Of a stretch of DNA of 64,000 nucleotides, positions 1-64,000 are shown one piece after another. The position numbers and the translations under genes were made by a program. The notes below the pieces were generated by a model. The model saw only the letters and a list, made by a program, of their open reading frames with translations. It was not told the DNA's origin and did not search any database. The stretch comes from Meyerozyma guilliermondii (taxonomy: Eukaryota). The stretch spans positions 124,001-188,000 of the forward strand of contig CP128815.1 in assembly GCA_051546255.1 (NCBI GenBank), read 5' to 3'. Numbering within the stretch: the stretch's first letter is position 1; the number at the start of each line of letters is the position of its first letter.

Positions 1-432
1 GTGGCCAAGAGAGCCGACTCTTCAGACGCATCTGCTGAAACTGGCGACTCCGCTGCCTCCGATGACTCCAGTGCTACTGATGACTCTAGTTCTACTGACG
101 AGTCTAGTGCTTCTGATGATTCCAGTGCTTCTGACGCTAGTGCTTCTGACGATTCAAGCGCTTCTGATTCTAGTGCCTCTGACGACTCCAGTGCTTCTGA
201 CGACTCAAGCGCTTCTGATTCTAGTGCTTCTGACGACTCTAGTGCTTCCGACAGCTCCGAGTCTGGCTCTTCTGACGAGTCCAGTGCTTCCGACAGCTCT
301 GAGTCCGGCTCTTCCGGATCGTCATCTTCTTCAGGTTCTAGCAGCTCATCATCTGGCTCTGGAGCTGGTGAGATGACCATTGGCTATGGTCTCGCTTTGG
401 GTGCACTTGTGGCTGGTTCATTGTTGATCTAA
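1..432 (+). CDS. 3' end of a Ser/Asp-rich GPI-anchored cell-wall protein (partial, starts before the window)
   Basis: Frame is open from base 1. It has SDDSSA/SDSSA repeats, a Ser/Gly run, then an omega-site-like SGAG and a hydrophobic C-terminus (MTIGYGLALGALVAGSLLI*). Confidence 0.8.
   Translation: MAKRADSSDASAETGDSAASDDSSATDDSSSTDESSASDDSSASDASASDDSSASDSSASDDSSASDDSSASDSSASDDSSASDSSESGSSDESSASDSSESGSSGSSSSSGSSSSSSGSGAGEMTIGYGLALGALVAGSLLI
55..312 (+). repeat. Coding minisatellite of 15/18-nt units (tctgacgactccagtgct-like) encoding S(D)DSSA
   Basis: Visible tandem repetition of agtgcttctga(c/t) units in lines 61-300. Confidence 0.85.
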
Positions 433-1375: not shown

Positions 1376-2386
1376 ATGAGTCCTTTCAGCGAAAAGAAAG
1401 GTAAACGATTCCAAGTAAAAGATGCCGAACAGGTTCCCCCATATTCGGGTACTGATCAGCCTATATTTCTTGAATCGAAACATAATAATCAACAATTACC
1501 AGATTATCATCAAGCACACCATGCCGGCACTTTCCATTATAAATTCGTAATGGCGGAAAAGCTGCTCAAACAAAACCATTACGTGTTCGTATCGGCAGAC
1601 TCAATGGGTAAATACAGATCATTCAAGGGAGTGTCGCTGGATTCACCCATAGATACCCATCAAAAAGTTTCAACATTACAGCATCAAGGAATCGGCATCC
1701 CATTATTATCTGCAAATATTGCTTGGAAAGAAAACTTTAAAATTGACAAGTCCATGACCATCTACAAGTACAACCGTCCGCCGAAAATGAGGTTATTTGA
1801 CAAAAATCTTGATAAGGAATTATTTTGCGTCGTCAAGTTGAGGGAGTCAGCTCAATATTATAGGTACGAATTTGAGTTCGTTAAGTCAAACAGGAAAATG
1901 ACCTTTTTCCTACATAGAAAGCACCCCTTTGGTGATGTGTGTTTCTCAGGAAGCGATATCCGTTATCGTTGGTTACATTCAAAGTATAGTATGTGGAGAG
2001 ACCGGTACCGGTACGACATTTTAAGGCTTCCCCTGACACAACCTTCATTACTTGATGGGATGGATATGGAAAAAAACAAACTAAACCCATCAAACAAACT
2101 AGTTGGTAGTAAACTTGCCGCATTCACCTTACCTACGAGAAAAGTGCTGGACTCAATCAAAGGTGGCCAGACCTTTGGTGGTATCGAGTATTTTCGCAAC
2201 TATTCATTGAAAAGGTATAGCCAGGATGCTACCATGGACTTGAATGTTCCCAAAACACTGCCCGGTGCAGACCCAGAGAGTATATCATCCGTTGATGAGC
2301 ACACTTTGGAGTTGTTGTGCATGGGATTAGTTTTGCACAAACGTGAAAGTGATAGAAGAGCCGAAAGACGTAACAGTGGAGGCTAA
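1376..2386 (+). CDS. Uncharacterized protein (~336 aa) with N-terminal PY-like motifs
   Basis: Long ORF with first ATG at 1376 (MSPFSEKK). Motifs VPPYS and LPDY are present; no family recognised. Its stop overlaps the LYS5 stop. Confidence 0.7.
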   Translation: MSPFSEKKGKRFQVKDAEQVPPYSGTDQPIFLESKHNNQQLPDYHQAHHAGTFHYKFVMAEKLLKQNHYVFVSADSMGKYRSFKGVSLDSPIDTHQKVSTLQHQGIGIPLLSANIAWKENFKIDKSMTIYKYNRPPKMRLFDKNLDKELFCVVKLRESAQYYRYEFEFVKSNRKMTFFLHRKHPFGDVCFSGSDIRYRWLHSKYSMWRDRYRYDILRLPLTQPSLLDGMDMEKNKLNPSNKLVGSKLAAFTLPTRKVLDSIKGGQTFGGIEYFRNYSLKRYSQDATMDLNVPKTLPGADPESISSVDEHTLELLCMGLVLHKRESDRRAERRNSGG

Positions 2387-3261
2387 TTAAAGAGAATTTC
2401 CCCAATGTCCAAGTACAACACTTCTGGAGGGACCTCATTGATCTGGCCCACAAATGATACTATAATAGGTATTGAAGCAGAGAAATCCAATATAGTTGAG
2501 AAGCATTTGAATTTCTGTATGGGCAACTTTTGTAGAAACTGACTATCCAGAAGTCCAGTTGTGTTGACTGAAGAGGTAACCCACTTTAGATCTGCACTAG
2601 AATCATGTACCAAATTCATATCAAAACCAAAGCTTGCCAAATTCAAATTTAGCCCACTTCCAATTAATTTTGTAAACGCTTCTTTTAAAGTCCACAATTG
2701 GTTAAAAGCGATATATCTTTCTTCAATATTCTCAATATCCATCAATTGAGTCCTCTCCAGCTCCGAAAACATCGGATCAAACTGGCTCATAAAGTTGATT
2801 GGAGAGATGGAGTCTTGCACCGAATGAGAAAGGTCTACTCCAATTGGTGTTCCGCAACCTTTTTCGATAGCAATACATACAATTTCATTCGATGTGCTGA
2901 TACTCAATTGAACATTGGTTTCGTCGAGGAAAGGCTTTCCATATTTTTCATATTTGAATGGAACATCTTGATCAACTGGAGCACCACGAAAATAATTAAT
3001 TACCACTTTCACGAGCAATTTGGATAGCAATTGCTTCGCTAGGTTGTGAATGGGCTGTTTCCGGAGTTTCACGCGTTCAGAGAGCGTAAATATTCGAAGT
3101 ACGTCTTCCAAGTTGTAATCGTCTGATAAATACGTTATCAATTTTGGAGTCACCAGAGTCCAAAAAACGTACAGTTTCGGGCTGGTTGCCTTTGTATCGT
3201 GTTGCTGGTTTGAAATTTGTGCTATAAACTCATCGAGCTTATTGTAAACGTCTTGGAGCAT
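2383..3261 (-). CDS. LYS5: Sfp-type 4'-phosphopantetheinyl transferase (aminoadipate reductase activator)
   Basis: YGKPFL, IGVDL and WTLKEAFTKLIGSGL PPTase motifs; first ATG at 3261. Confidence 0.88.
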   Translation of the reverse strand: MLQDVYNKLDEFIAQISNQQHDTKATSPKLYVFWTLVTPKLITYLSDDYNLEDVLRIFTLSERVKLRKQPIHNLAKQLLSKLLVKVVINYFRGAPVDQDVPFKYEKYGKPFLDETNVQLSISTSNEIVCIAIEKGCGTPIGVDLSHSVQDSISPINFMSQFDPMFSELERTQLMDIENIEERYIAFNQLWTLKEAFTKLIGSGLNLNLASFGFDMNLVHDSSADLKWVTSSVNTTGLLDSQFLQKLPIQKFKCFSTILDFSASIPIIVSFVGQINEVPPEVLYLDIGEILFN

Positions 3262-6833: not shown

Positions 6834-7616
6834 ATGCCCTATTACGCCATTGCTAACGGCAGAAAAACCGGGGTTGTACAAACTTGGAAAGAATGTGAGT
6901 CCCAAGTTGCAGGTTACAAAAATGCAAGGTACAAAAAGTTCAAAACTGAGGCAGAAGCAGCAGCATTCGTTCTGGATTATGGGTCTTCAGCCAAGCAGCC
7001 AGCTTCTGTAGACTACAGTCACCGTCAAAAACCAGCTGTTAATAACAATTCTCGAATCACAAAGCCCAAGACTACTCCTCGTCATGTTGATCCAACAACC
7101 AACTCATCCAACGTCCAACATATCTACGTGGATGGAGCTGCTCGAGGAAACGGAAAGGTACGGAGCCCCAAATCAGGATACGGTGTATTTTATGGAGAAG
7201 GAGATGAGCGAAATGCGGCTGTACCATTATCTAAAGTTGACTCTGATCGAACCGGAACTAACCAAAGAGCAGAGTTGCACGCATTAAACCACGCTCTTGA
7301 CGATATATCCAAAGAATTGAACCAAGGAAATACACCGAAGGAGTACATCATCCATTCAGACTCGCAGTACACCATTAAGGCAGTTGGTGAATGGGCTAAG
7401 AAATGGAAAACCAATGGCTGGCGTACGGCTTCTGGGACTCCCGTGAGTAATAAAGACCTTATCGAAAAGGCAGTTGATAAGGTTGCTACTATCAACAAGG
7501 CATATGTGGCCAGAAAAATGGCCCCAATAATAATAGCCTATGTCCCTGGACATGCTGGCAACTACGGAAACGAAATGGCAGACCAGTTAGCTAACAAAGG
7601 AGCTGACTTGGACTGA
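6834..7616 (+). CDS. RNH1: Ribonuclease H1, copy 1 (hybrid-binding domain + RNase H domain)
   Basis: YYAIANGRKTGVVQTWKEC...YKKF hybrid-binding domain. Catalytic motifs IYVDG, TNQRAEL, SDS, GH and NEMAD are all intact. Confidence 0.92.
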   Translation: MPYYAIANGRKTGVVQTWKECESQVAGYKNARYKKFKTEAEAAAFVLDYGSSAKQPASVDYSHRQKPAVNNNSRITKPKTTPRHVDPTTNSSNVQHIYVDGAARGNGKVRSPKSGYGVFYGEGDERNAAVPLSKVDSDRTGTNQRAELHALNHALDDISKELNQGNTPKEYIIHSDSQYTIKAVGEWAKKWKTNGWRTASGTPVSNKDLIEKAVDKVATINKAYVARKMAPIIIAYVPGHAGNYGNEMADQLANKGADLD

Positions 7617-7760
7617 CTTGCAATGCTATCACGAGGTCAATGGGTGCAATTCAGATCATCACGATATTGAATGCGCACGAATAACGAGGAACTTGTACAA
7701 AGTGCAATGTGGATACATCTCATTTCCATATTACCTTACTGTAAACCCATAGCTTTTGGG

Positions 7761-8250
7761 GAACTTGACATATTATGCAGCACCCATAATGTTAAACATA
7801 GAGGTCAGAACACCTCGGAAATCAAGCTGCTTGGGTAATGCGACCAGCCAGATTGAGTGAAAAAGTCTTCAGATAAAGACTCCAGAGGAGACGCGGAAGC
7901 CTCGAGAAAAAATACAGACTCCTGTCCCAACCCGGATGTCTTTGTCAAGTGTGGAAGCTCAAGTAAAATTGAAAACCTACTGATTCTGACATAATCCAGC
8001 CAAAGTTAATTCAGTGGGGGGTCGTAAGATTCTGTTGCTAAAGCCATAGACAATTCAGAGCTCTACCATCAGACGAGCCCATATAGATAGTCAGATGTGG
8101 TTTGAGGGATATCTTGAAACATCTTGAAACATCATGAAACATCATTAAACATCCACATCTAGTCTCACATTATCTAAGCAGCTTGATTTGAGGTACTGGT
8201 TCAGGTACCTCTAGTTCAGCGAATGGAACTAAACTTGTTGAGTCAAGTTC
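7761..8250. repeat. Degenerate inverted repeat, arms ~7761-7843 and ~8165-8250
   Basis: aaatcaagctgctt (7819-7832) is the exact reverse complement of 8176-8189. gaacttgac and tagaggt also match at co-linear spacing. Confidence 0.75.
8111..8153 (+). repeat. 10-bp tandem repeat (atcttgaaac)x4, degenerating
   Basis: atcttgaaac atcttgaaac atcatgaaac atcattaaac atc. Confidence 0.85.
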
Positions 8251-8500
8251 AAAAATACCTCCATATTCATCTTGATTAACCATAGGCACTGATCGATAAG
8301 ACAACGGGAAAACAAATCCAGGTATTTTAGAGTCATTTGATTTACGAAAGTATACTCGAGTTTCCACAAGATTAGATCCGCAGGATGTCGCTTAATCTTG
8401 CATCAAGATAAGAAGATTACTTAAACGCACCATTTTGACGGAGAATTGCGCACGACGAAAATCGATACCCTTCGTGAATAAAGCCAACCAAATTGAACCA

Positions 8501-9232
8501 ATGCCCTACTATGCAATTTGTGACGGCAGAAAGATAGGCGTTGCCCTGAGCTGGGAAGAATGTAAATCTTATGTTTCTGGATACAGCAATGCTTGGTACA
8601 GGAAATTCGACACCAAGTCTGAAGCGAGGGATTGTTTTACCTCCAATATGTACCTGTCAGATTCAGAAGACGATTACCTGTCTTATGGCAAAAATTTTGA
8701 CAGAAATTTTGAAATGGAACATATTTACATTGACGGAGCTTGTAAGAGAAACGGAATGGCTCTGCAACGTAAAACAGGATACGGCGTCTTTTATGGAAAT
8801 GGTGATGTGCGTAATGCAGCTGTTTCCTCGTCAAATGCTGATAAACTATCAGGAACCAACCAAAGATCAGAATTGCGCGCATTGTATCACGCTATCATAA
8901 ATATTGTCAATGACATAAATGATGACGGTACCACTAAGGCGTACACCATTCATACAGACTCGAAGTATGTCATCAGGGCTTCTGGGATCTGGGCCAAGAA
9001 ATGGAAATCTAATGGCTGGCGTACAACCACTGGGCGTGTTGTGGCTAATCAAGATCTCATAAAGAGGATAGTCTTTTATTTGAAAGAAATCAACGAGAGA
9101 CTTGCAAATATTGGCTTGCCTCCAGTAAAAATTGAGTACGTTCCTGGCCATGCTGGCAACCACGGAAACGAAATGGCAGATAAATTGGCTAACAAGGCAG
9201 CTGACGAGGATGGAGAACCATACTGGCTTTGA
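8501..9232 (+). CDS. RNH1: Ribonuclease H1, copy 2
   Basis: ATG at 8501 (MPYYAICDGRK); IYIDG, TNQRSEL, TDS, PGHAG and NEMADKLA. Confidence 0.9.
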   Translation: MPYYAICDGRKIGVALSWEECKSYVSGYSNAWYRKFDTKSEARDCFTSNMYLSDSEDDYLSYGKNFDRNFEMEHIYIDGACKRNGMALQRKTGYGVFYGNGDVRNAAVSSSNADKLSGTNQRSELRALYHAIINIVNDINDDGTTKAYTIHTDSKYVIRASGIWAKKWKSNGWRTTTGRVVANQDLIKRIVFYLKEINERLANIGLPPVKIEYVPGHAGNHGNEMADKLANKAADEDGEPYWL

Positions 9233-9845
9233 TGTTTACTTGCAATTCTTTTCACGACAAGTATTAAATTTCAAGTCTCTTCAGACTGAGATCTGCTCGC
9301 AAAACTAATTTCGATGAGGCCCATCAATGGATGCAAATTTATGATGAACAGGCGCAGCCTATTGACGGATCATACTTTGGATATACTGTCCTTGAGGAGT
9401 CATAATCACTGTTGCAACATGTCTGGATTGGACCAAGCATATCTCTACAACTTGATGTTTGCTTGAGCTCTATAGTGTACATCAATGCCACACTATGCGC
9501 CTTATGGTCCAGATTACGTTATCTCAAATGGTGCGAGTTTCGCGGATCAAATTAAAACTTTTTGCAACTCTTTTGCAATTTGATTATGCTCAAACTCCCA
9601 AACAGGCAACTTACTTCCCCAGATGCCTCCGCTTTAAGTAGCTTTTACATGTTTTACTATTGAACGAGATGTTTTCAAACCGATAACCGTTTTTGGGATT
9701 GCACACTTTTCATAAAATGCCCGCAAATTTCAGCGAATGCAGCAACTGTAAATCAATGTATTAGGGCACCCTAGAGGGTATAAAAAGATGGCAGACTCTT
9801 GTTCCCCCACCCCGCAAGAAATAATTGAAGAACTCAACTAAGAAA

Positions 9846-10365
9846 ATGCCGAATTCCGCAAGTGCCAATGGCAGAAAGGCAGGTGTTGTACTGAACTGGA
9901 AGGAATATGAGTCCCGCGTCTCTGGTTACAGTTATTCAAGTTTTAATAAGGGCAGCTCAAAAGCTGAAGCTGCCGCGTTTGTTCTGTCCAGTACTTCAAG
10001 CAAGCGCTCCAGTTCCTACAGTCACCAGCCAAGTTCTAGCGGAGGCAGTTATTCCTCAGCAAAGTCCACTAGTTCCAAGACTCCAAAAACCAAAAACTCA
10101 TCAGGAACGCAACAAGTTTACCCGGATGGAGCTTCTAGGGGAACGGTAAAGTACAGAACCGTATGTCTGGTTATGGTGTATACTATGGAGAAGGAGATAA
10201 GCCCAAAGCTGCTGAACCATTATCAAAAGCTGATCAAAAGCCAGGTTCTAATCAAAGAGCAGAGTTACAAGCTTGCCCCCAGTAAAAAGTGACCATGTTG
10301 CTGGTCATTCCGGAATTCACGGAATGGCAGATCGGTCAGCTAACAAAGGAGCTGACAACGATTGA
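9846..10365 (+). pseudogene. RNH1: Ribonuclease H1 pseudogene, copy 3
   Basis: Eroded hybrid-binding domain (MPNSASANGRKAGVV). A 1-bp frameshift near 10143 hides GNGKV..SGYGVYYGEGD..SNQRAELQA. An internal deletion at ~10272 joins to LPPVKSDHVAGHSGIHG--MAD..ANKGADND*. TATAAAA survives at 9779-9785. Confidence 0.88.
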
Positions 10366-10586
10366 GTTAAGGGACTGAGATTTTGTTAGCAGAGCTTTGT
10401 GATGAGGATTGTCAATGGATTCGATGGTGATCGAGCTCATCACGAAATTAGTTTTTACCTTATGAAATGAATGACCTATATATTGCTCGAGGATCAATGG
10501 TTTATACTTCTATTCTATTTCTCATTTTAAATATAATTCAGACTCGATTCTCACCATATAAAATTTCGCAGCTCTAGAAATGCAAA

Positions 10587-11381
10587 ATGCCTTATTACGC
10601 TGTCGCTCATGGTCGTCAAACTGGGGTGGTTAAAAGCTGGAAAGAATGCCAATTGAGAGTACAAGGTTACCGTGGAGCGATCTATGAAACTTTTCGTCAC
10701 GCAACCGACGCCTATAATTTCGTTGATGAAAATAATCCTTCGAAGAGAAGTGAACATTGTACCAAAATCTTTATTGACGGCGCATTTCAAGGAGACCAGT
10801 GCGGATATGGAGTCTGGTACGGCGATGATGATCCCAGAAATGCTGCCGTACCACTTTTCCAGGCAAAAGAAGAACTTCCATTGAACAATCAACGAGCAGA
10901 ATTAAGGGCCATGATTCATGTTTTTAGAAATATACAGCAAGAGATCGAACTGAACAACGGTATCCCTTTAAAAGAGTATGTGATTCTTACTGATAGTCAG
11001 GCTACCATCAAGGCACTCACCATTTGGTCTGTTAAATGGAAAAAGAATGGATGGAAGACAACGAAAGGAGAGATCATTGCAAATAAAGATCTAATTAGTG
11101 AAGCTGTTGAATTATTAGAGAGCTTGGAGCAATACTACCGAACCAGTGACTTGAGATTAGCAATCGAACATGTTTATGGGCATGCTGGTGTACATGGGAA
11201 TGAAGAAGCTGATAAATTAGCAACTTTCGCAGCAAGCTTGACTACCATCATACTGGAAAATAAGGATACCAGCAAACTGAAAATTCCCTACGAATTCCCT
11301 TCAACATGGGTTCTGGTCACCGGCTTTACTATAGCTCTTGTTCTGCTAGGGTTCTATGTCTTGAGGAAAAGAAGGTCCTAA
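10587..11381 (+). CDS. RNH1: Ribonuclease H1, copy 4, with C-terminal transmembrane tail
   Basis: MPYYAVAHGRQTGVV hybrid-binding domain; IFIDG, NNQRAEL, TDS, GHAG and NEEAD; ends with a ~19-aa hydrophobic segment plus RKRRS. Confidence 0.88.
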   Translation: MPYYAVAHGRQTGVVKSWKECQLRVQGYRGAIYETFRHATDAYNFVDENNPSKRSEHCTKIFIDGAFQGDQCGYGVWYGDDDPRNAAVPLFQAKEELPLNNQRAELRAMIHVFRNIQQEIELNNGIPLKEYVILTDSQATIKALTIWSVKWKKNGWKTTKGEIIANKDLISEAVELLESLEQYYRTSDLRLAIEHVYGHAGVHGNEEADKLATFAASLTTIILENKDTSKLKIPYEFPSTWVLVTGFTIALVLLGFYVLRKRRS

Positions 11382-11401: not shown

Positions 11402-12907
11402 CTAAGACTTTCTATTTCTTTTAAAGTGGTCCACAATGACACCATATATCGCCACTAAAGACCCAACAGCACTCAATGCGCACCCAACATACGCTGCTGT
11501 CTTGGTGGCTTTAACTTCAGCATTGAAATCAGTACCTGGTGCTTGCTTCAACACAGCAGTTCCAGCAACACCCAAGGCCAAAGATATGGAATAGTTGACT
11601 ACGGTCGCAACCAAAGAGGCAGAAATGCCCTGCCATTCGTGGGGTACAACGTCACTCAAGAGGAGCGTTGCTGCGGGAAAGCACACATCCACTCCAAAGG
11701 GTGCTATAATGAAGGTAATGAAACAGGATGCCCAATAACTATCGTGCACATCAACGACAGATAACATTGCTGCTGATATTACAAATGCCAATAGTCCAAT
11801 TACCATCAAGACCTGAGTCGTAACTCCTTTGGAAAGCATAAAGCCGGTGAATGCAGCTGCTAATAATCCACTCACAATTGCTGGGGTAAATTTTACTGCT
11901 GCAAGAATTGGACTATCGCCTCGAAGAGACAAGAGAAAGTTGAAATAGAAGTAGATCAAGATTCCAAAAGTTCCAAACCCACAAGCAACACAAATCAACA
12001 CTCTCAACACTATAGGTGACATCTGCTTAATGGGAATCAATGGCTGCGAAACCTTCAATTCGACGTAAACGAAAATGGACAACAAAAGCACCCCAATAAC
12101 CAACAAGATGTACGTATACGGTGTCAGCCATTTGACAATGGGAGCTTGATTCCAGGCTACGTTGAAGAGCACAAGCCCCCCAACTCCTGTGAAGGCACCC
12201 AAAAAGTCAAATTCCTTATTTCTTCCTTCATCTAGGGTATCCTGTGGTATTATCAAAAATGCCAAAATGGTGAGACAAGCGCAGGCTATTCCCATAGACC
12301 AATATATCCACGCCCAGTGAGTAAACTGGGAAAAAATTGCACCAAAGATACTTCCAAATACGAACCCCAAAGGAGTTCCTGCTCCAAATACCACAAAGGC
12401 TATAGTCTTCCGCTTGCCTGGCGGATAAAAACGTCCTAAAATTGCAAGACCGTTGGGAAGCAAAAATGCTGGACCAACACCCTGGAACCCTTTGCAGCAG
12501 TAATAAAAAACAGCATTGGAGTAACTACTGGCACCGGTCAATAAGGACCAAATTGTTAGCCAGACATACCCAAATAAGAACATTCTCTTGTGTCCCAAAA
12601 TATCGCCCAATCTCCCAGCAATGATGATTAACGTACCTGCGCTCAAACTCAAAGATGCAATTGACCAGGTAAGTTCTGCTTCATTAGTTATGTTGAACCA
12701 TTCACCAATAATCCGTATCGATGAAAGGCCCTGTGCGACACTTACCTGGGTAACAAATTGACCTGAAAATATGATCAAAACGAATAAGATTTCGTGAAAG
12801 AGAGAGATTTGCGGTTCAATAATTTCGATAGTATTTGTCTTGTCTTCATTTCCTGTGACAGTTTCCGGATCAGATACATCAGTATTCATATTGGAGATAT
12901 TGCTCAT
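11402..12907 (-). CDS. ATR1: MFS drug:H+ antiporter, DHA2 family (ATR1/SNQ1-like)
   Basis: Many TM segments; AGRLGDILGHKRMF motif A, QGVGPAFLLPNGLAILG, DFLGA and QGISASLVATVVNYSISL. Start 12907 is preferred because a TATATAAG lies at 12941-12948, immediately upstream of the earlier ATG. Confidence 0.82.
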   Translation of the reverse strand: MSNISNMNTDVSDPETVTGNEDKTNTIEIIEPQISLFHEILFVLIIFSGQFVTQVSVAQGLSSIRIIGEWFNITNEAELTWSIASLSLSAGTLIIIAGRLGDILGHKRMFLFGYVWLTIWSLLTGASSYSNAVFYYCCKGFQGVGPAFLLPNGLAILGRFYPPGKRKTIAFVVFGAGTPLGFVFGSIFGAIFSQFTHWAWIYWSMGIACACLTILAFLIIPQDTLDEGRNKEFDFLGAFTGVGGLVLFNVAWNQAPIVKWLTPYTYILLVIGVLLLSIFVYVELKVSQPLIPIKQMSPIVLRVLICVACGFGTFGILIYFYFNFLLSLRGDSPILAAVKFTPAIVSGLLAAAFTGFMLSKGVTTQVLMVIGLLAFVISAAMLSVVDVHDSYWASCFITFIIAPFGVDVCFPAATLLLSDVVPHEWQGISASLVATVVNYSISLALGVAGTAVLKQAPGTDFNAEVKATKTAAYVGCALSAVGSLVAIYGVIVDHFKRNRKS

Positions 12908-13000
12908 GACAATTTTCTTCCAATTGAGAAACGTTACCATCTTATATATCCGAAGTAGCACGCATATACGAAATGAGGTCAGTTCAACAAATCAATCGAG

Positions 13001-13240
13001 TGATGGGTTACATCTTCAACAAGCTATTTGGCTGCAACTTTCCCAAATAGGAGTGCTGCAGCACTCGAAAAATCCTGCATACGCGCCAACGATGGTGATA
13101 GGAGACCAATTTGATAGGAGACCATTCCGTAAGGCGGTATGCAAAGTGCTCACATAGGGCATGAGCGTGCCGCAATTGATGGGATACCTACGATAATTGT
13201 CAGCTCTAATTGTTGGCTTAGTAAATCCTGATGGGTGACC
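13001..13240 (+). promoter_or_regulatory. Five co-oriented copies of TGATRGGWKAC(C) in the divergent MFS/hydrolase promoter (putative Fzf1 sites)
   Basis: 13001 TGATGGGTTAC, 13096 TGATAGGAGACC, 13112 TGATAGGAGACC, 13177 TGATGGGATACC, 13229 TGATGGGTGACC. Confidence 0.7.
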
Positions 13241-13329
13241 ACATTTAGCTAAACTATTTAAGACAGTGAATATTCCAAACTACAACAGTCAATTGAAGCT
13301 TGTTCGGTCGACAAAAACTTATAACTACC

Positions 13330-14202
13330 ATGACTTACTTTCCAACATACAACAAAGTTCGTGTTGAAGATGGAACTAACGTGTTCTATCGCGAGGCAGG
13401 ATCTTCAGATAAGCCAGTAATCTTGCTTCTCCACGGATTTCCTTCATCGTCTCATATGTTCCGGGACCTTATTCCTGTCCTTGCCCCTCACTTTCGTGTG
13501 CTCGCTCCGGACTTACCAGGTTTCGGATATACAGAGACTTCAACTCTGTACAAAGTCACATTTGCAGCCATTGCCGACACCATTGATCAATTCTTAAGCA
13601 AGTTGAAAATCAACAAGTTTTACGTCTACATCTTTGACTATGGTGCTCCCACCGGATTCAGACTCGCACTCAAGCACCCCGAAAGAGTCAGTGGAATTGT
13701 GACCCAGAATGGAAATGCTTATGTTGAAGGAATTGAGAACGACTTCTGGCAACCCATTAGAGAATACTGGAAAAAATCCAAGGATGACCCAACCTTCTTT
13801 GAAGCCCTTTCCAAGTTTATTGAGGATCCAGCCAATGTGACCGTTCAGTATACGGAAGGAGAGCCCAATGCGTCCGGAATTGATCCTCTGTCATGGACGT
13901 TAGATCAAGCTTTGTTAGCTAGGCCCGGCCAAACAAAACTCCAGGTGGAATTGTTCCATGACTACCAGCTGAACGTCGAGTTGTACCCTAAATTCCAAGA
14001 ATACTTGAGAACCAGTAATGTACCAGTTCTTGTGATTTGGGGCAAAAACGACAAGATCTTCCCACCAGTTGGTGCGGAAGCGTACAAGAGGGATGTGAAG
14101 AACCTCGAGTTCCACTATGTTGACGGAGGTCACTTTGCTCTCGAGTCCCATTTGAAAGAGATTTCGAGCAAGATTATCGAGGTTTTTAGTCAAAAACACT
14201 AG
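13330..14202 (+). CDS. Alpha/beta-fold epoxide hydrolase, homolog of S. cerevisiae YNR064C
   Basis: YREAG, LLLHGFPSSSHMFRDLIP, APDLPGFG, FDYGAP nucleophile elbow, QNGNAY, WGKND and GHFALE; ATG at 13330. Confidence 0.88.
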   Translation: MTYFPTYNKVRVEDGTNVFYREAGSSDKPVILLLHGFPSSSHMFRDLIPVLAPHFRVLAPDLPGFGYTETSTLYKVTFAAIADTIDQFLSKLKINKFYVYIFDYGAPTGFRLALKHPERVSGIVTQNGNAYVEGIENDFWQPIREYWKKSKDDPTFFEALSKFIEDPANVTVQYTEGEPNASGIDPLSWTLDQALLARPGQTKLQVELFHDYQLNVELYPKFQEYLRTSNVPVLVIWGKNDKIFPPVGAEAYKRDVKNLEFHYVDGGHFALESHLKEISSKIIEVFSQKH

Positions 14203-14506
14203 TTTTGTTATAATTTGCAGCCATGTTTAGCGTTTTTATTATTGTATACGAACCGTTTAAGAATGTAAAAATCAAACCACAAGTTTAAGTCACCATAAAC
14301 TAGATTTCATTTGTACCCATTTTGCCACCGGAAAGTCTTTAGTTGTATGTTTTATATCTCCGACCACCTGACGAGCCTGCACCAAACTAAAAATTCTCAA
14401 CTAAAATAATGGAACCAAAACGAGCACACCAGGAGTAGACAGACTGCACTAATATAACCCTAAATCAATAATTCCAAGAAGTTCCAAGCTAGAACCGTCT
14501 CTAAGC

Positions 14507-15133
14507 ATGTTAACTGAACCTGAAAACACAAAATACGTGCGGCCAAAGAAGTACGTTTGCCCCCTAGAATCCTGTGCTAAAGCGTACACCAGGCCGTCCT
14601 TGCTTCAACAGCATCGTAGAACACATACCAACGAAAGACCCTTTGCGTGCCCGGAGCCAGGGTGCGGCAAGCGATTCTTTAGAAACTCACATTTACAAGT
14701 CCACAAACATATCCATGCCAAGGAAAAGCCATTGAAGTGCAGTGTGTGCAACAAGGGCTTCATCACGAATCAGCAATTGTTGCGGCACACCAAAACCCAC
14801 AAGGCCGAGTTTCTGTGCCCATACGACTGTGGATCGCAGTTTACTGATGGTGGAACCATGACCAGCCACGTGTTGGAAAACCATATGAACAGTGATGTCC
14901 TATTTCCTTCGTACGCCTCGGAGGGATTGTCAGAATCGCTTTCTGAAAGCACCCATAGCCATTCTACTTCGCCATCAATAGTGGGATCTGAACGGGTTGG
15001 CGAGGATTTCTTCTCCGATCTTCACTGTAAGGAACCCGAATGTGCTGAATATGATGCCTATGAAACGATAGCACACTTGATAGAACATTACGATAACTTC
15101 CATTCGTTTGTTCCTCCCGGGTTGTTCCAATAA
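14507..15133 (+). CDS. FZF1: Five-finger C2H2 transcription factor, FZF1-like
   Basis: Three tandem TFIIIA-like fingers ([30 protein letters not shown]), a fourth CPY.C..HVLENH, a Ser-rich spacer, and an atypical fifth finger [23 protein letters not shown]. This matches the Fzf1 layout rather than nine-finger TFIIIA. Confidence 0.78.
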
Positions 15134-15314: not shown

Positions 15315-17279
15315 ATGAGTGCATTTGCTGCATTTCGCAAAAAATCGGTTACTGAGCTCTTTAGCAACGAAGAAGAAGACGATGAGGAAATAAAATACGA
15401 AATTGGTTCTTCCGATGAAGAAGTAGAAGATAAGCAGATTATAGACTCCGATAGGACGCGACCCAGTAGTGCTACTCCAACAATAACTCCATCGGTATCC
15501 CGTTTAGTGTTAGTCCCCGAGATCTCTGAGTCAAGGTTTATTCCCGACGATGATAATTTTCTAGTTTTTGACGACCATATAATCGTGGGACTCAAAACAA
15601 ATGAGTATCTTCTTGTTTCGGGCCAATGTAAAATCACAGTACAACGAGGAGCAGTGAAGTTAAACGAGGTTGATTACCACCACGCCGACCCAGAAAGGTC
15701 AATTTCAATTGTTGCATCTTTTTCCCAGTCACTTCCTATGATTTCAAGTACGCAGATTCTAGACAGAGATGGTGTTCGAGATACCCAAAACGACCATAAC
15801 AAGCATTTATTTTCGAGCGACTATAAGTCTGTAGTGATGATCGCCAATTACTCCACTGGAGTAGAAGATATAGGACTGTACTGGCGACCGTTCAAGAGAT
15901 TCTTTGGATTTGGTGGAGAATCCGATGTTGAACTGCTTGGAGAGATGGAACGACTCTTCCAGTCATACACCTTCGAGATTGTGCTCCGTAACAATGGGTC
16001 TTTAGGAATGAATCTTGACGCAGTATGGGGTACAGATCTCAAAAGTTTATGCGAGAATATAACTGAGGACCTCGAATCCAGTGTGACAATGATAATAGGC
16101 AACAAGAACAGCGGCAAGTCAACTCTCTCAAAGACTCTTACGAACGCCTTATTATTGAAACAAAGACTTCCAGTGGCATATTTGGACCTAGACCCGGGTC
16201 AATCCGAGTTTTCTGCTCCGTTTACGTTGTCTCTTACACTCATACATGAGCCTATTTATGGCATGTATCTCTTCAATCCCCATGAAGTGGTCTCGTCACA
16301 CTACTATGGGTTCACCACCCCACAACAGCACCCAGACCTATACATCTCCATTGCCAAATCACTTTTGCATAGCTTCATAAGCAAGCTCAAATCACAGGGA
16401 ATAAATCTTGTGATAAATACACCAGGTTGGATCAAAGGGTTTGGAATGGAAATTTTGAACAACATTTCGAATGAACTCGAACCAGACCATCTAATCTTAT
16501 TATCAGGAAGTCTCGATCCAGGGAGCCCTGAAAACGCTGACATACTATCCACAATCACCCACAAAAAATCCCACATTTTTCAAGGAATTTACCATCAATC
16601 AAAGTACTCTCCATCTCAATTACGAACTTGGAATAAGCTATTGTACTTCCACAGGCAAAACACTCCAAGCGGACTGCACTTTGATTTCAAAACTCACATT
16701 CTAGATAAACCCCCATTGAGACTACCATACCAGGTTGAAGAAGACCCATCGTTTTGCGGTTTGAACTCGGTTCTGTTCCTCAATGTGGATCCATCAGAAG
16801 TTGGCAAGGATAATATTGCGTTACTTTTGGATGCCTCTATCGTTGGATTCTACCTTATAGACTACGAGTACTACTCTTCGTACCAAGGACTACAACTGAT
16901 TTCTCCCGACCAACCTCTAATCATGAGACTGGCATTATACTCTGATATGATCGATTTTCGAGCAACTGAGGTCCTGTTTGCGGGACTTGGCATGATCCAC
17001 AGTATCGATACTGCGAGACATTGCTTTAATATTTACCTACCATTTTCCGTCAAAGAAAACTTGGAGAAGCATTTATCCAATGGAATGAAGTTGGTAATGG
17101 TTAAAGGCGAGGGCGACATTCCTCCAGCAGAGTTTCTCAAGCCAGAATTGCTCAAATCAGTAAGCAAAAAATCGGCCGATGGAAGCAACCTTCCACTTCC
17201 TTATATCAGTTTTGAAAGCAACAAGGTTGCTGGTGTGTGGAAGATGCGCCGAAACGTCATGCGTAGGGGCCAACGATGA
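15315..17279 (+). CDS. GRC3: Polynucleotide 5'-hydroxyl kinase (Clp1/Nol9 family)
   Basis: GNKNSGKST P-loop, LDLDPGQSEF and INTPGWIKGFG; C-terminal W.MRRNVMRR; ATG at 15315. Confidence 0.9.
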   Translation: MSAFAAFRKKSVTELFSNEEEDDEEIKYEIGSSDEEVEDKQIIDSDRTRPSSATPTITPSVSRLVLVPEISESRFIPDDDNFLVFDDHIIVGLKTNEYLLVSGQCKITVQRGAVKLNEVDYHHADPERSISIVASFSQSLPMISSTQILDRDGVRDTQNDHNKHLFSSDYKSVVMIANYSTGVEDIGLYWRPFKRFFGFGGESDVELLGEMERLFQSYTFEIVLRNNGSLGMNLDAVWGTDLKSLCENITEDLESSVTMIIGNKNSGKSTLSKTLTNALLLKQRLPVAYLDLDPGQSEFSAPFTLSLTLIHEPIYGMYLFNPHEVVSSHYYGFTTPQQHPDLYISIAKSLLHSFISKLKSQGINLVINTPGWIKGFGMEILNNISNELEPDHLILLSGSLDPGSPENADILSTITHKKSHIFQGIYHQSKYSPSQLRTWNKLLYFHRQNTPSGLHFDFKTHILDKPPLRLPYQVEEDPSFCGLNSVLFLNVDPSEVGKDNIALLLDASIVGFYLIDYEYYSSYQGLQLISPDQPLIMRLALYSDMIDFRATEVLFAGLGMIHSIDTARHCFNIYLPFSVKENLEKHLSNGMKLVMVKGEGDIPPAEFLKPELLKSVSKKSADGSNLPLPYISFESNKVAGVWKMRRNVMRRGQR

Positions 17280-17370
17280 TTTTCCAGTAGCTGCAAACTG
17301 TGCAACTTCTTTACCGAGCCTGGTGCATTGGGGTGCACCAGATAAAATTTCAAGTTCTGACAGCGACGTC

Positions 17371-18759
17371 ATGAAGTCAATGAAATTACTGGCTCTCACA
17401 GCAATTGTAGGGCTTGCTTCGGCCATAATACCCGATGTGGATCAGCTAAGAAACACCAAGGGTGAATCAACTTTAGAACCAGGACACCAATCGCTTCCTG
17501 ATTTACTTCAGATCAACGACGTGCACGACCTTGATTTGACTTGGCAAACAACCAACCTCAGGTACGACACTGGAAGGTTGATCCTTGACCAAGGTACAGG
17601 AAGCTTGTGGTCGATTGCCCAATTAGCAAACTCACTAGATGAATGGACTGCCGAATTGACATTTAGATCAACTGGACAAGTGAATCAAGATGCTCAATTC
17701 CAAGATAACGGATTGGCGTTTTGGTTTGTCGATCCTGAGAACACTCCTATCTCGTCGTCTGCGACTGAAAACTATGGTGGTCCCTCTTACTTCGATGGTT
17801 TTCAAATTGTGATGAACAATCGTGATGCCGCAGGCTTAAAAATATTCATGAACGATGGTTCAATTGCTCGACAGACCTCCCTCAGTGACTCGATAGGCAA
17901 TTGTGTATTTAACTATCTTGACTCTAACATTCCCTTTACCATCAGGGTGTCATATTCAAGGCAAAGAAAATGGTTCAAGGTTCAGGTTGACAACAACTTG
18001 TGCTTCAAAACGGACAGTATCACCATTCCAACATCGGCAAATGACTTGAAGTTTGGAGTTACCGGAAACATAAACCTGCAATCACTGGAAACCTTTGAGA
18101 TACTCAAGTTGTCGGTTTGGTCCTCGTTAACAGAAGATGCGATTGACGACCATGGATTGATGGCAGATGGTCAATTGAAAGTACAATACAAAACCATGGT
18201 AGTTGACGATAAAGATGACCATGTTCCTCCAGCTCAAATAAGACAGTCTCTCATGGAGAGAACACGTTTACATCAAAAGCAAATGATGGAGGAACGGAGC
18301 TCTTTGAGTCAAGAAGCATTATTGCAAGATATTGTCGCTCGACTCGAAGCCATTGAAAAATCCATATCAAATCTTGCAAACACCCAAAACACTAATGATT
18401 ACGAAAGTCATGCTGCAAACAAGCTCCAAGGTAACCTCGAGACATTCCAAGCTACAATTACCAACCAGTTCTCCAACATGGTGGATGCGTTATCTAACTT
18501 GAACCAAAAGGTGATAGGAGAGGTTAGAGAGCATCAGCATGGAATGGACGAAATATCTAAAAAAGTCGATCTTTTGATGGCTAACCACAAGGAAATTACT
18601 CATCAGTATAATGAACAACAACAACTTCGTCCTCCTTCATCGGAACTAACCACCACAATCGTTAGGTGGGTTTTGACACCAGTAATTTTGTGCATTATTG
18701 TGTTGAGTATCTTCATCTACAGATTGAGACATGATATCAAGCACTCCAAGTTGCTTTGA
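17371..18759 (+). CDS. EMP47: L-type lectin COPII cargo receptor (Emp46/Emp47)
   Basis: Signal peptide, lectin motifs (GLAFW, YGGPSYFDG), coiled coil, TM segment and KHSKLL dilysine-type tail; start 17371 or 17380. Confidence 0.85.
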   Translation: MKSMKLLALTAIVGLASAIIPDVDQLRNTKGESTLEPGHQSLPDLLQINDVHDLDLTWQTTNLRYDTGRLILDQGTGSLWSIAQLANSLDEWTAELTFRSTGQVNQDAQFQDNGLAFWFVDPENTPISSSATENYGGPSYFDGFQIVMNNRDAAGLKIFMNDGSIARQTSLSDSIGNCVFNYLDSNIPFTIRVSYSRQRKWFKVQVDNNLCFKTDSITIPTSANDLKFGVTGNINLQSLETFEILKLSVWSSLTEDAIDDHGLMADGQLKVQYKTMVVDDKDDHVPPAQIRQSLMERTRLHQKQMMEERSSLSQEALLQDIVARLEAIEKSISNLANTQNTNDYESHAANKLQGNLETFQATITNQFSNMVDALSNLNQKVIGEVREHQHGMDEISKKVDLLMANHKEITHQYNEQQQLRPPSSELTTTIVRWVLTPVILCIIVLSIFIYRLRHDIKHSKLL

Positions 18760-62094: not shown

Positions 62095-64000
62095 TTAGTC
62101 AGTATAAAGGCCATAAACGTCACTGAGCACATCGTCGTTGATTACCTCATTGAACTGCACAATGCTTGAAAGGGGACTTGATTCAGACTCTTGGTAACAT
62201 CTAGTGTGTTTCTTGAAGTCAAAGGACCGCCGTAACCAGCTCCTTTTGGGTAAATTGATGTTGCATTCTTTTGAAGACTCTCCCAGAACTGTTAGTGCTG
62301 AGGGCAGCAAGAGCTTGTCCTTGACAAATTCAATGAAATAAGAGCTCTCCAAATTTATAACTTTGTTTCTTGATACTTCTTCTTCACCAAACTTGCCTCC
62401 AAAATGGTAATTACCAGTGACAATCTTACCCCAGTTATGTCTATGCCTTTTTGTATTTTTCCCCTCACCTATGTTGGAACTCCCCTGAGTGTGTGGTACC
62501 CTGTATACTGGACAGGACGGTGGATCTGTTAGTGTCGAATCTCTTGGACTGTCAACATAAGAAACCGTAAAGTTGTTCTTGATGGTATCGAATTCTTGTG
62601 CAGTATATGATGACAATCGGGTACTCCATTCCTTTAAAAAGACCCTTATATGTTGCTCAAGACAAGTGGAGCTATGAAATGAGCTAGTTATTGCCAACCT
62701 GATTCCAACGCTAGTACTGAACATTTGTGGTGCTGCATCGACATAATAACCCAAACATTTTTCCATGCGTAATTCTCGATCAGCGGCTGTGGCAAGTAAA
62801 AACCCTATCATATATGACATCATTACTGCAATTGGATCTGTCTTGTTACCCAATTCGCAGAAAATCATGGTAGTGGTGGATGTGTTAGGAGACGGTATCT
62901 TGAAGCTAAGCGAGCGTCCGCCAAGAGATATTGATTCATTTTGCACAAGTGACTTGAAGGGTTGAGAGCCAGTAAGTAATGGTTTTAGGGCTCTGTAGGT
63001 TTGCTGAACACATTCTTCATCTACAAATCCACTCATGAGCACTTTCAAATATTTGAGGGAATTTTTCAAATGGTTGCAAAATTTCTGAATTGTGCAAATA
63101 TCCACCACTTCCAAAATTTCAATTCTCTCATCAAGAGAATGTATCGCTGGTTCAAGCAAGTAGTATGAAACAGATAAGACCTGTTTCAATCCAGAAACAT
63201 CACCAAACTCATCATAGCAATGTCTTACTTGTGTTCGGGCTCTTCGCAACTCGGTGTTTGAAATGGTGGTAACCATTTCGATTATGCTTAAAGTGCCGTC
63301 TAATAGCAACTTTAACGCATCTTGAATGAAATCCTTCAAGCCAGAAACATTGAAGGATAAGCTGTTTTGGTAGTTGAGATTTGGACATATGCTCCATTCG
63401 ACTCCCAATTCTTCAACCTTGTATAATTCATGCCGCAATGTATTTCCAATAATGTTGCTCAACAAATCAAGCATTACGTCGGTTTTGGCTGTACGGGATA
63501 ACGTTGTGAATAATATCTGGAATGATAGTCTGACTTTGCAACCGGAAACTTCTTCGTAAGAGTCGGTCCACATCTCTAAATTCGGCAGCTTCAAGCACTG
63601 AACTGGCTGACTACTGGGCATTAAAATTTTACTGGAACTTTGGGACTGTTCGAGTTGAACTTGTTTGAACAAACTTTGATTGGAGTCTTGACTGGAGTCT
63701 CGACTGTAGTCTCGCCTGAAGCCCAGTGTTGTATTTTCTTGAAAAAGTTTAGGGTTCAAATAATGCCGTTCATACTCAAAGTCAAACTGAGGGTGAACTC
63801 CACTATCAATATGGTCTCCATAAAGATCTTGAATATTTGGGTTCTTCTTTCCCATGATAATCAAGTTCATTCTACCAGGCTCCAAGATTTTTCCGGAACA
63901 AGTGACAAACTCTTTTGCTCTTGAAGTCCAACTGGTTCCCAGCATAATATCATCCCAATCATCATAGCCACGAATTATGTTTTTTGTTTTAATGGTATCA
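62095..64000 (-). CDS. AXL1: C-terminal part of an M16A insulysin-like metalloprotease (Axl1-like), partial
   Basis: Frame is open to the window end; ELRMEKCLGYYV resembles the insulysin LRT.EQLGY.V motif; strong divergence fits Axl1 better than Ste23. Confidence 0.55.
   Translation of the reverse strand, partial: DTIKTKNIIRGYDDWDDIMLGTSWTSRAKEFVTCSGKILEPGRMNLIIMGKKNPNIQDLYGDHIDSGVHPQFDFEYERHYLNPKLFQENTTLGFRRDYSRDSSQDSNQSLFKQVQLEQSQSSSKILMPSSQPVQCLKLPNLEMWTDSYEEVSGCKVRLSFQILFTTLSRTAKTDVMLDLLSNIIGNTLRHELYKVEELGVEWSICPNLNYQNSLSFNVSGLKDFIQDALKLLLDGTLSIIEMVTTISNTELRRARTQVRHCYDEFGDVSGLKQVLSVSYYLLEPAIHSLDERIEILEVVDICTIQKFCNHLKNSLKYLKVLMSGFVDEECVQQTYRALKPLLTGSQPFKSLVQNESISLGGRSLSFKIPSPNTSTTTMIFCELGNKTDPIAVMMSYMIGFLLATAADRELRMEKCLGYYVDAAPQMFSTSVGIRLAITSSFHSSTCLEQHIRVFLKEWSTRLSSYTAQEFDTIKNNFTVSYVDSPRDSTLTDPPSCPVYRVPHTQGSSNIGEGKNTKRHRHNWGKIVTGNYHFGGKFGEEEVSRNKVINLESSYFIEFVKDKLLLPSALTVLGESSKECNINLPKRSWLRRSFDFKKHTRCYQESESSPLSSIVQFNEVINDDVLSDVYGLYTD

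Follow-up and report, generated by a model that had tools for sequence, protein, structure and literature searches.

The locus and the question

The question raised by positions 11,402 to 15,133 of the DNA analysed here is whether a regulator, an enzyme and an exporter that lie side by side belong to one regulon. The DNA is a stretch of 64,000 nucleotides from Meyerozyma guilliermondii (GenBank assembly GCA_051546255.1, contig CP128815.1, positions 124,001 to 188,000 of the forward strand), referred to below as the window. The initial annotation, made from the sequence alone, had described an efflux pump, an epoxide hydrolase and an FZF1-like gene at this place as a linked module. The sequence evidence suggests that the locus is probably a clustered Fzf1 regulon, with the regulator beside its likely targets. 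An intact five-finger Fzf1, an intact hydrolase of the Ynr064c type and an efflux pump of the DHA2 family are present, together with five Fzf1-like sites in the promoter common to pump and hydrolase. These sites are evidence beyond that on which the annotation was built; the linkage it described was confirmed, and they make the module plausible. Papers are cited below by PMC number, in each case from excerpts of the text.

The pump gene (512 amino acids, MFS_1 in Pfam) and the hydrolase gene (290 amino acids, Abhydrolase_1) are divergent with 389 bp between them. The zinc-finger gene (208 amino acids, zf-C2H2) starts 304 bp past the hydrolase stop, in agreement with the distance of about 300 bp given at first. 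The window is a densely coding chromosome segment of a budding yeast. It translates with NCBI code 12: translation in this code reproduces NCBI protein P0262 as stored, and CTG codon 187 of the hydrolase aligns with serine in homologs, including that of Lachancea. The source is thus a CUG-Ser yeast, and a Meyerozyma by its 81% homologs from Meyerozyma sp. JA9 and by the pump, which matches a gene of Candida (Meyerozyma) guilliermondii.

Fzf1-like sites in the shared promoter

In the published Fzf1 element CS2, AAATGATAGTNANC, an accessory C lies five bases downstream of the core, TGATAG (PMC12852955). The motif TGATRGGWKAC was found in five copies, all on one strand and all in the 389-bp promoter, and nowhere else in the 64 kb (Table 1). 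The exact core with its C occurred twice against an expectation of 0.054, a number reached by 50 of 20000 dinucleotide shuffles. With one base relaxed, five sites were seen and 0.10 expected, and none of the 20000 shuffles reached five. The remaining 26 intergenic regions (8601 bp) held no exact site and one relaxed site. Elsewhere in the window there were 12 relaxed sites, at most two in any 389 bases. The promoter of S. cerevisiae YNR064C also carries two identical CS2 copies (PMC12852955).

No CS2-like site was present in the 304-bp region upstream of FZF1 (14203-14506), and autoregulation of FZF1 was rejected on this ground. The lack of a site there accords with the S. cerevisiae regulator, whose level is stated in an abstract to be unchanged after induction.

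Table 1. Features of the three-gene locus (window coordinates)
Feature	Position	Strand	Remark
Major facilitator superfamily (MFS) efflux pump, DHA2 family (putative 14-spanner), ATR1/AMF1-related orphan lineage	11402..12940	-	likelier start 12907 or 12889
Divergent promoter of pump and hydrolase, 389 bp	12941..13329	.	five CS2-like sites, TATA-like element at either end
TATA-box match TATATAAG towards pump	12941..12948	-	function inferred
CS2-like variant TGATGG-N4-C	13001..13011	+	about 50 bp from pump TATA
CS2 core TGATAG-N4-C	13096..13106	+	copy 1 of identical 13-nt pair
CS2 core TGATAG-N4-C	13112..13122	+	copy 2, 16 nt past copy 1
CS2-like variant TGATGG-N4-C	13177..13187	+
CS2-like variant TGATGG-N4-C	13229..13239	+	just upstream of hydrolase TATA-like element
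TATA-like TATTTAA towards hydrolase	13255..13261	+	function inferred
YNR064C-type alpha/beta hydrolase, epoxide-hydrolase-like	13330..14202	+	HGFP 35-38, Asp103, Asp241, His268
FZF1 ortholog, compact, five C2H2 fingers	14507..15133	+	without long linker between zinc fingers (ZF) 3 and 4 and without tail after ZF5

Identification of the regulator

The zinc-finger gene is almost certainly an FZF1 ortholog. All 20 zinc ligands were kept in an alignment with S. cerevisiae Fzf1 (read from locus L004). Eight of the nine base-contact residues of ZF1-3 listed from the Fzf1-DNA crystal structure (R25, R55, H58, R60, V61, T83, Q85, Q86, R89; PMC12852955) were identical. The exception is Arg60, which is Gln in Meyerozyma Fzf1; its contact is present in one of the two crystal subunits (PMC12852955). 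Lys70 of the S. cerevisiae protein, which is modified in vitro by methyl methanesulfonate (PMC12852955), is kept as Lys74.

For ZF5, a hidden Markov model (HMM) was made from the C-terminal 75 residues of Fzf1 in 11 proteins from Saccharomycetaceae and searched against 520 proteins. The window protein scored 42.5 bits, the TFIIIA-like protein of locus L002 18.4 bits and poly-finger proteins of this set less than 4 bits. The TFIIIA of locus L003, which lies beside what we take to be RPO26, was not among the 70 matches listed. The initial annotation had made its proposal depend on the gene being an Fzf1 ortholog; this was examined, and ligands, base contacts and ZF5 HMM all argue for orthology. 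The predicted structure (mean predicted local distance difference test 71, predicted TM score 0.33) contains five helices. In a fold search it matched 9E6E, the structure of Fzf1, with 56% identity and a root-mean-square deviation of 2.1 Å.

The Fzf1 tree comprised 23 rows, near-duplicates and three non-Fzf1 matches being omitted. The window protein grouped at 100/98 with the protein of Meyerozyma sp. JA9 (an 81% homolog labelled FZF1 by NCBI), two unnamed proteins and Priceomyces carsonii. As Meyerozyma and Priceomyces both belong to the Debaryomycetaceae, this grouping fits vertical descent. The group lay beside but outside the Saccharomycetaceae clade, in a tree that did not resolve the order among the Fzf1 groups. 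A linker of roughly 55 residues between ZF3 and ZF4 is absent from the Meyerozyma protein. The N-terminal extensions of the 81% Fzf1 proteins matched the DNA upstream of the window FZF1 weakly (E 0.5-1.2).

Broader searches gave less specific results. Candidate scoring covered 41 candidates, with S. cerevisiae Fzf1 not listed among them. In a profile search of 1.84 billion representatives poly-finger proteins predominated, and the 150 rows contained three additional Fzf1 sequences; the ESM Atlas returned generic C2H2 clusters. In many contigs only a 91-amino-acid C-terminal piece of FZF1 was called (P0264, P0265, P0268, P0270), and automated gene calls may therefore often miss FZF1. Proteins P0007-P0009 and their clusters form a distinct Fzf1 group of 285-291 amino acids from many Logan/ENA contigs; it lies outside both main clades, and none of 14 is named. 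The yeast locus L001 encodes an Fzf1-like protein of 495 amino acids (1514-3001, +) with Arg25 replaced by Lys and an insertion within ZF4; the neighbours of its gene are a membrane gene resembling nine-spanners and a gene that probably encodes a fungal transcription factor. Locus L002 (217-2388, +) encodes a nine-finger TFIIIA-like protein whose first helix resembles that of Fzf1 and whose eighth finger gave the match to the ZF5 HMM. This protein is a lead for the idea that Fzf1 may be an internally deleted TFIIIA duplicate.

The hydrolase

The hydrolase was 54% identical over its full length to S. cerevisiae Ynr064c (P0505) and 60% identical to the Debaryomyces fabryi homolog. HG(F/Y)P, Asp103, Asp241 and His268 were conserved in all 14 alignment rows, and Tyr 146, 174, 212 and 219 were invariant. 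In epoxide hydrolases two lid tyrosines open the ring. From knowledge of the family, Asp103 would act as nucleophile, Asp241 as acid and His268 as base. Epoxide hydrolases are told apart from dehalogenases by an aromatic residue at X of the HGXP motif (PMC5605520). The window enzyme has Phe at this position and also carries the Asp/Asp/His residues of Ynr064c-type epoxide hydrolases. The nearest solved structures were haloalkane dehalogenases (E about 1e-22).

In a tree of 37 rows, 36 of them stored proteins picked from the matches and cluster members, the five Meyerozyma-type enzymes formed a branch of their own (100/98). The approximately unbiased (AU) test rejected a forced grouping with the Debaryomyces enzymes at a borderline p of 0.033. 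A forced grouping with the Wickerhamomyces anomalus pair was not rejected (p 0.077). Paralogy or transfer of the hydrolase is possible on these trees. Bacterial relatives (L077-L121) were often found near DUF1348, DUF6130, CMD-family, PNPOx-like or isochorismatase-domain genes or near a second hydrolase.

The pump

The pump matched MFS_1 with an E value of 2e-30, and its best NCBIfam match was TIGR00711 (DHA2) at 95 bits, the cut-off being 230. A crude hydropathy scan gave 13 helices. The protein is also found in a survey of 31 yeast genomes which we take to be that of Dias and Sa-Correia (2013). There the 512-residue protein matches the supplement row of cagu_00085 of Candida (Meyerozyma) guilliermondii, a DHA2 protein which is the sole member of cluster G, has no conserved neighbourhood and is predicted to have 14 helices by TMHMM and 13 by HMMTOP (PMC3890622). 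Named matches were Amf1/YOR378W-like (43-46% identity), and the best match outside its own cluster reached 55% among the 120 matches listed. In a quick tree of 36 rows, without any named Atr1 row, the pump grouped with the unnamed proteins P0484, P0143 and P0488 (Shimodaira-Hasegawa-like approximate likelihood ratio 99), outside the Amf1 clade. By its sequence it is in neither the ATR1 (cluster E) nor the YOR378W/AMF1 (cluster F) ortholog group. Of the pair described at first, an ATR1-like pump divergent from a YNR064C-like hydrolase, the arrangement and the hydrolase type were borne out; orthology of the pump to ATR1 was not.

The true start of the pump is probably at 12907 or 12889 rather than at ATG 12940, because the TATA match abuts ATG 12940, the 91% homolog diverges upstream of the second Met, and the third Met is the first residue in several members of the cluster.

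Linkage in related yeasts

Linkage in relatives was judged from contigs of the same size (the longest per protein), not from read DNA, and a common contig is not the same as adjacency. The comparison took in 64 Fzf1, 169 hydrolase and 140 pump entries, with 14 hydrolase clusters opened. Same-size contigs numbered 12 for Fzf1 and hydrolase, six for pump and hydrolase and five for Fzf1 and pump; for contigs above 10 kb, about 0.01-0.07 chance matches were estimated from near-miss counts, with about 0.06 for Fzf1 and hydrolase. It is the short contigs that carry information. A contig of 13,288 bases was common to all three genes at 90-93% identity, and another common contig, at 96%, had 18,154 bases. 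Fzf1 and hydrolase had four further contigs of 13,292-21,038 bases in common in 81% clusters, and one of 20,327 bases at 67% and 78% identity. This is indirect evidence for linkage of FZF1 and the hydrolase gene within 13-21 kb, down to 67% Fzf1 identity. No pump entry of matching size was found for the 81% and 67% contigs, and all relatives in which the pump was seen had an identity of about 90% or above.

In a more distant yeast the pump relative P0484 (53%) and the hydrolase P0037 (58%) were each on two contigs, the longest being 72,395 bases for both. P0037 is 78% identical to the W. anomalus enzyme and its sister in the tree. The Priceomyces contig had no hydrolase entry of matching size among the 14 hydrolase clusters opened. 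FZF1 of S. cerevisiae (L004) is flanked by other genes, which we take from their translations to be ZRT1- and HXK2-like. The downstream neighbours differ in L001 too, where 1.5 kb is visible upstream. None of 76 metagenome loci scanned matched hydrolase or pump; the top four, which were read at the level of the open reading frame (ORF), were two Fzf1 and two TFIIIA-like loci.

Alternative explanations

Several observations weigh against a clustered Fzf1 regulon. None of the five promoter sites matches the full consensus AAATGATAGTNANC; the base after the core is G in all five, compared with T in S. cerevisiae, and a core base is altered in three. The two exact sites represent a single tandem duplication and are therefore not independent, one such site being found in about 5% of shuffles. 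The relaxed motif was picked after the repeats had been seen. A motif-blind repeat test, in which 1, 156, 31 and 35 of 300 shuffles reached the observed value, was significant in one of four settings. In the regulator Arg60, Trp64, Lys72, Arg88 and Arg96, which make backbone or inter-finger contacts, are changed. The 120 matches listed included none to a pump homolog in the identity range from 56% to about 90%, and the pump is found where a tandem RNH1 array ends, in a part of the window that is locally unstable. None of the 45 bacterial hydrolase loci had a pump match alongside, and the 51 of 108 extracted neighbour ORFs that were scanned (28 of the 45 loci) contained no MFS pump, being mostly small redox or hydrolase genes. 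Accessions RLV84631.1 and RLV84637.1 of strain JA9 are six numbers apart, so adjacency is not established there, and the contig comparison carries the same reservation. As to the sites, the preference of Meyerozyma Fzf1 may have shifted towards G after the core, since all five have G where ZF2 reads T and the ZF2 tip differs from that of S. cerevisiae (Pro56Asn, Cys57Ser, Arg60Gln).

Fzf1 might control the hydrolase alone, the pump being a later head-to-head passenger or under another regulator. The restriction of the pump to close relatives, its orphan status among the 31 yeast genomes and the position of all five sites on one strand are consistent with this, and no DHA2 pump is among the listed S. 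cerevisiae Fzf1 targets in the excerpts. The sites are nevertheless spread across the whole 389 bp and approach the pump TATA closely, yeast upstream activators act in both directions, and a pump relative has a contig in common with a hydrolase in a distant yeast. A passenger pump is considered rather unlikely. Direct control of the hydrolase by Fzf1 is likely, and co-induction of the pump, which the initial annotation had put forward as a new Fzf1 target, is plausible and somewhat favoured, with the five sites in the promoter it shares with the hydrolase.

It is improbable that the repeats bind another factor or none and that the three genes lie side by side with nothing to connect their regulation. 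The missing full consensus, the weak motif-blind test in three of four settings and the single duplication behind the exact pair would agree with it. The motif nevertheless coincides with the published core of the factor encoded next door and lies upstream of a homolog of that factor's known target. Relaxed sites also number at most two in every other 389-base stretch of the window, and the linkage of FZF1 and hydrolase persists down to 67% identity.

Equally improbable is one ancient or horizontally moved cassette of all three genes, a historical explanation that is compatible with control by Fzf1. The borderline separation of the hydrolase from its Debaryomyces homologs and the hydrolase-bearing contig of the orphan pump's nearest tree relative, in a Wickerhamomyces-like yeast, could be read in this sense. 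Fzf1, on the other hand, groups with that of Priceomyces, a member of the same family, as expected of vertical descent. The free tree does not place the hydrolase sister to P0037, though that grouping was not rejected. GC content and GC content at third codon positions of pump, hydrolase and FZF1 lie inside the window range, with one, three and one CTG codons, respectively. The suggestions that the block was ancestral or had moved horizontally as one unit were not supported: FZF1 has other neighbours in L004 and in the visible part of L001, the 81% and 67% lineages yielded no close homolog of the pump, and the three gene trees differ. An ancestral or jointly transferred block is thus not supported by the sequences compared, which point instead to FZF1 and hydrolase as an older Meyerozyma pair and to a pump that either arrived later beside a site-rich promoter or was lost in distant lineages.

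That the zinc-finger gene is a shortened copy of TFIIIA (PZF1) has been largely refuted: it is 48% identical to the L003 TFIIIA over 128 residues and has a short ZF3-ZF4 link as in TFIIIA, which also came first by E-value in the fold search, yet at 29% identity and 23 Å, and the protein has five fingers with a ZF5 of the Fzf1 type and is separated by a 91/89 branch from both TFIIIA-like rows, themselves long branches.

Neighbouring genes

To the left of the pump are four tandem RNase H1 copies (6834-11381, +), which we take from translations and Pfam matches to be RNH1 genes; the identity of the copies with the first one is 40-54%. In the third (9846-10292) the frame is lost past the first catalytic motif, while the end of the fourth is a hydrophobic tail, which could serve as a membrane anchor. 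To the right of FZF1 lies a CLP1_P-domain gene, presumably GRC3-like. At 15315-18759 (+) a lectin-like ORF read from its first ATG (17179) overlaps the upstream gene; translation more likely starts at a later Met, which precedes a signal-like stretch. A Ser/Thr-rich repetitive ORF at 62-376 (+) with 16 CTG codons and no Pfam match is probably an other-frame shadow of a repeat. A peptidase M16-like gene at 62095-63945 (-) gave weak Pfam matches and is divergent or truncated.

Proposed mechanism and significance

For a clustered Fzf1 regulon the following course may be proposed by analogy with S. cerevisiae. Fzf1 would be made without feedback, no site being present upstream of its gene, and would be kept inactive by ZF4. 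A reactive chemical, such as an alkylating, nitrosating or epoxide-type electrophile, would modify Fzf1 and free the ZF5 activation domain, whereupon ZF1-3 would occupy the five sites and both divergent genes would be switched on. The hydrolase would open an epoxide-type substrate via an alkyl-enzyme intermediate at Asp103, to be released by His268/Asp241, and the pump may use proton antiport to export this compound or what is made from it. For the S. cerevisiae protein, ZF4 has a restraining and ZF5 an activating role, chemical induction is lost when FZF1 is deleted, and nitric oxide induces YNR064C more than 60-fold, the highest value of all targets (PMC11442136, PMC12843318).

The papers cited here leave open what the natural signal of Fzf1 is and why its targets are so unlike. 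A link between regulator and target kept over two yeast orders would mark the hydrolase as the core target, so that fewer compounds would have to be considered as natural inducer. The 208-residue protein offers a natural minimal Fzf1 for studying the restraint of ZF5 by ZF4, and the 389-bp promoter with its five variant sites is suited to direct study of site preference and two-way activation. For the orphan pump, whose host is both an opportunistic pathogen and a biotechnology yeast, this is a first regulatory lead. A more far-reaching and distinctly speculative reading, itself doubtful, joins these points. The Ynr064c-type hydrolase, sometimes with a cluster-G pump, would be an old core target of Fzf1 across Serinales and Saccharomycetales, SSU1, YHB1 and DDI2/3 having been recruited later in Saccharomyces. 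Fzf1 would be an internally deleted TFIIIA copy to which the compact Meyerozyma protein is still near, and the changed ZF2 tip would have moved the site to TGATRGG. If this were true, the locus would indicate for which natural chemical Fzf1 evolved as a sensor.

Comparison with known systems

No report of a cluster of FZF1, hydrolase and pump or of its sites was found in the literature searched, which covered few subscription journals; the excerpt of PMC2459174 does not mention these genes. The labelling of the JA9 gene as FZF1 by NCBI was already known. What appears to be new is the clustered form in which a known regulon occurs here, together with the pump as a plausible addition to its targets.

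The closest known system is the Fzf1 regulon of S. cerevisiae (SSU1, YHB1, DDI2/3, YNR064C; CS2; PDB 9E6E). Five fingers, the DNA-contact residues, Lys70 as Lys74 and the ligands of ZF4 and ZF5 are alike, and in both yeasts a doubled CS2 core lies upstream of a Ynr064c-type gene. The two differ in that regulator and candidate targets are adjacent in Meyerozyma, whereas S. cerevisiae FZF1 lies between genes taken to be ZRT1- and HXK2-like. The Meyerozyma regulator has 208 residues instead of 299, as it lacks both the tail past ZF5 and the long linker from ZF3 to ZF4, its sites read TGATRGG instead of TGATAGT, with a different ZF2 tip, and a DHA2 pump is among the candidate targets. The hydrolase agrees with Ynr064c in length, HGFP motif and Asp/Asp/His residues, but the Meyerozyma enzymes are on their own branch, and epoxide hydrolysis is predicted. 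The pump resembles the DHA2 clusters E (Atr1/Ymr279c) and F (Yor378w/Amf1) in its predicted 14-spanner type and is 43% identical to S. eubayanus Amf1; it is in cluster G, however, and Table 2 of PMC3890622 gives separate E and F members for the same species.

The nitrosative-stress circuit of Candida albicans, also a CUG-clade yeast, has a comparable stress role. There YHB1 is induced via the Zn2Cys6 factor Cta4 (PMC2728829), whereas Meyerozyma retains the C2H2 factor Fzf1. This use of Cta4, together with the finding of no FZF1 ortholog in S. ludwigii or B. bruxellensis (excerpt of PMC7903802), indicates a patchy distribution of Fzf1, homologs of which are stated for Candida and Kluyveromyces (PMC12843318).

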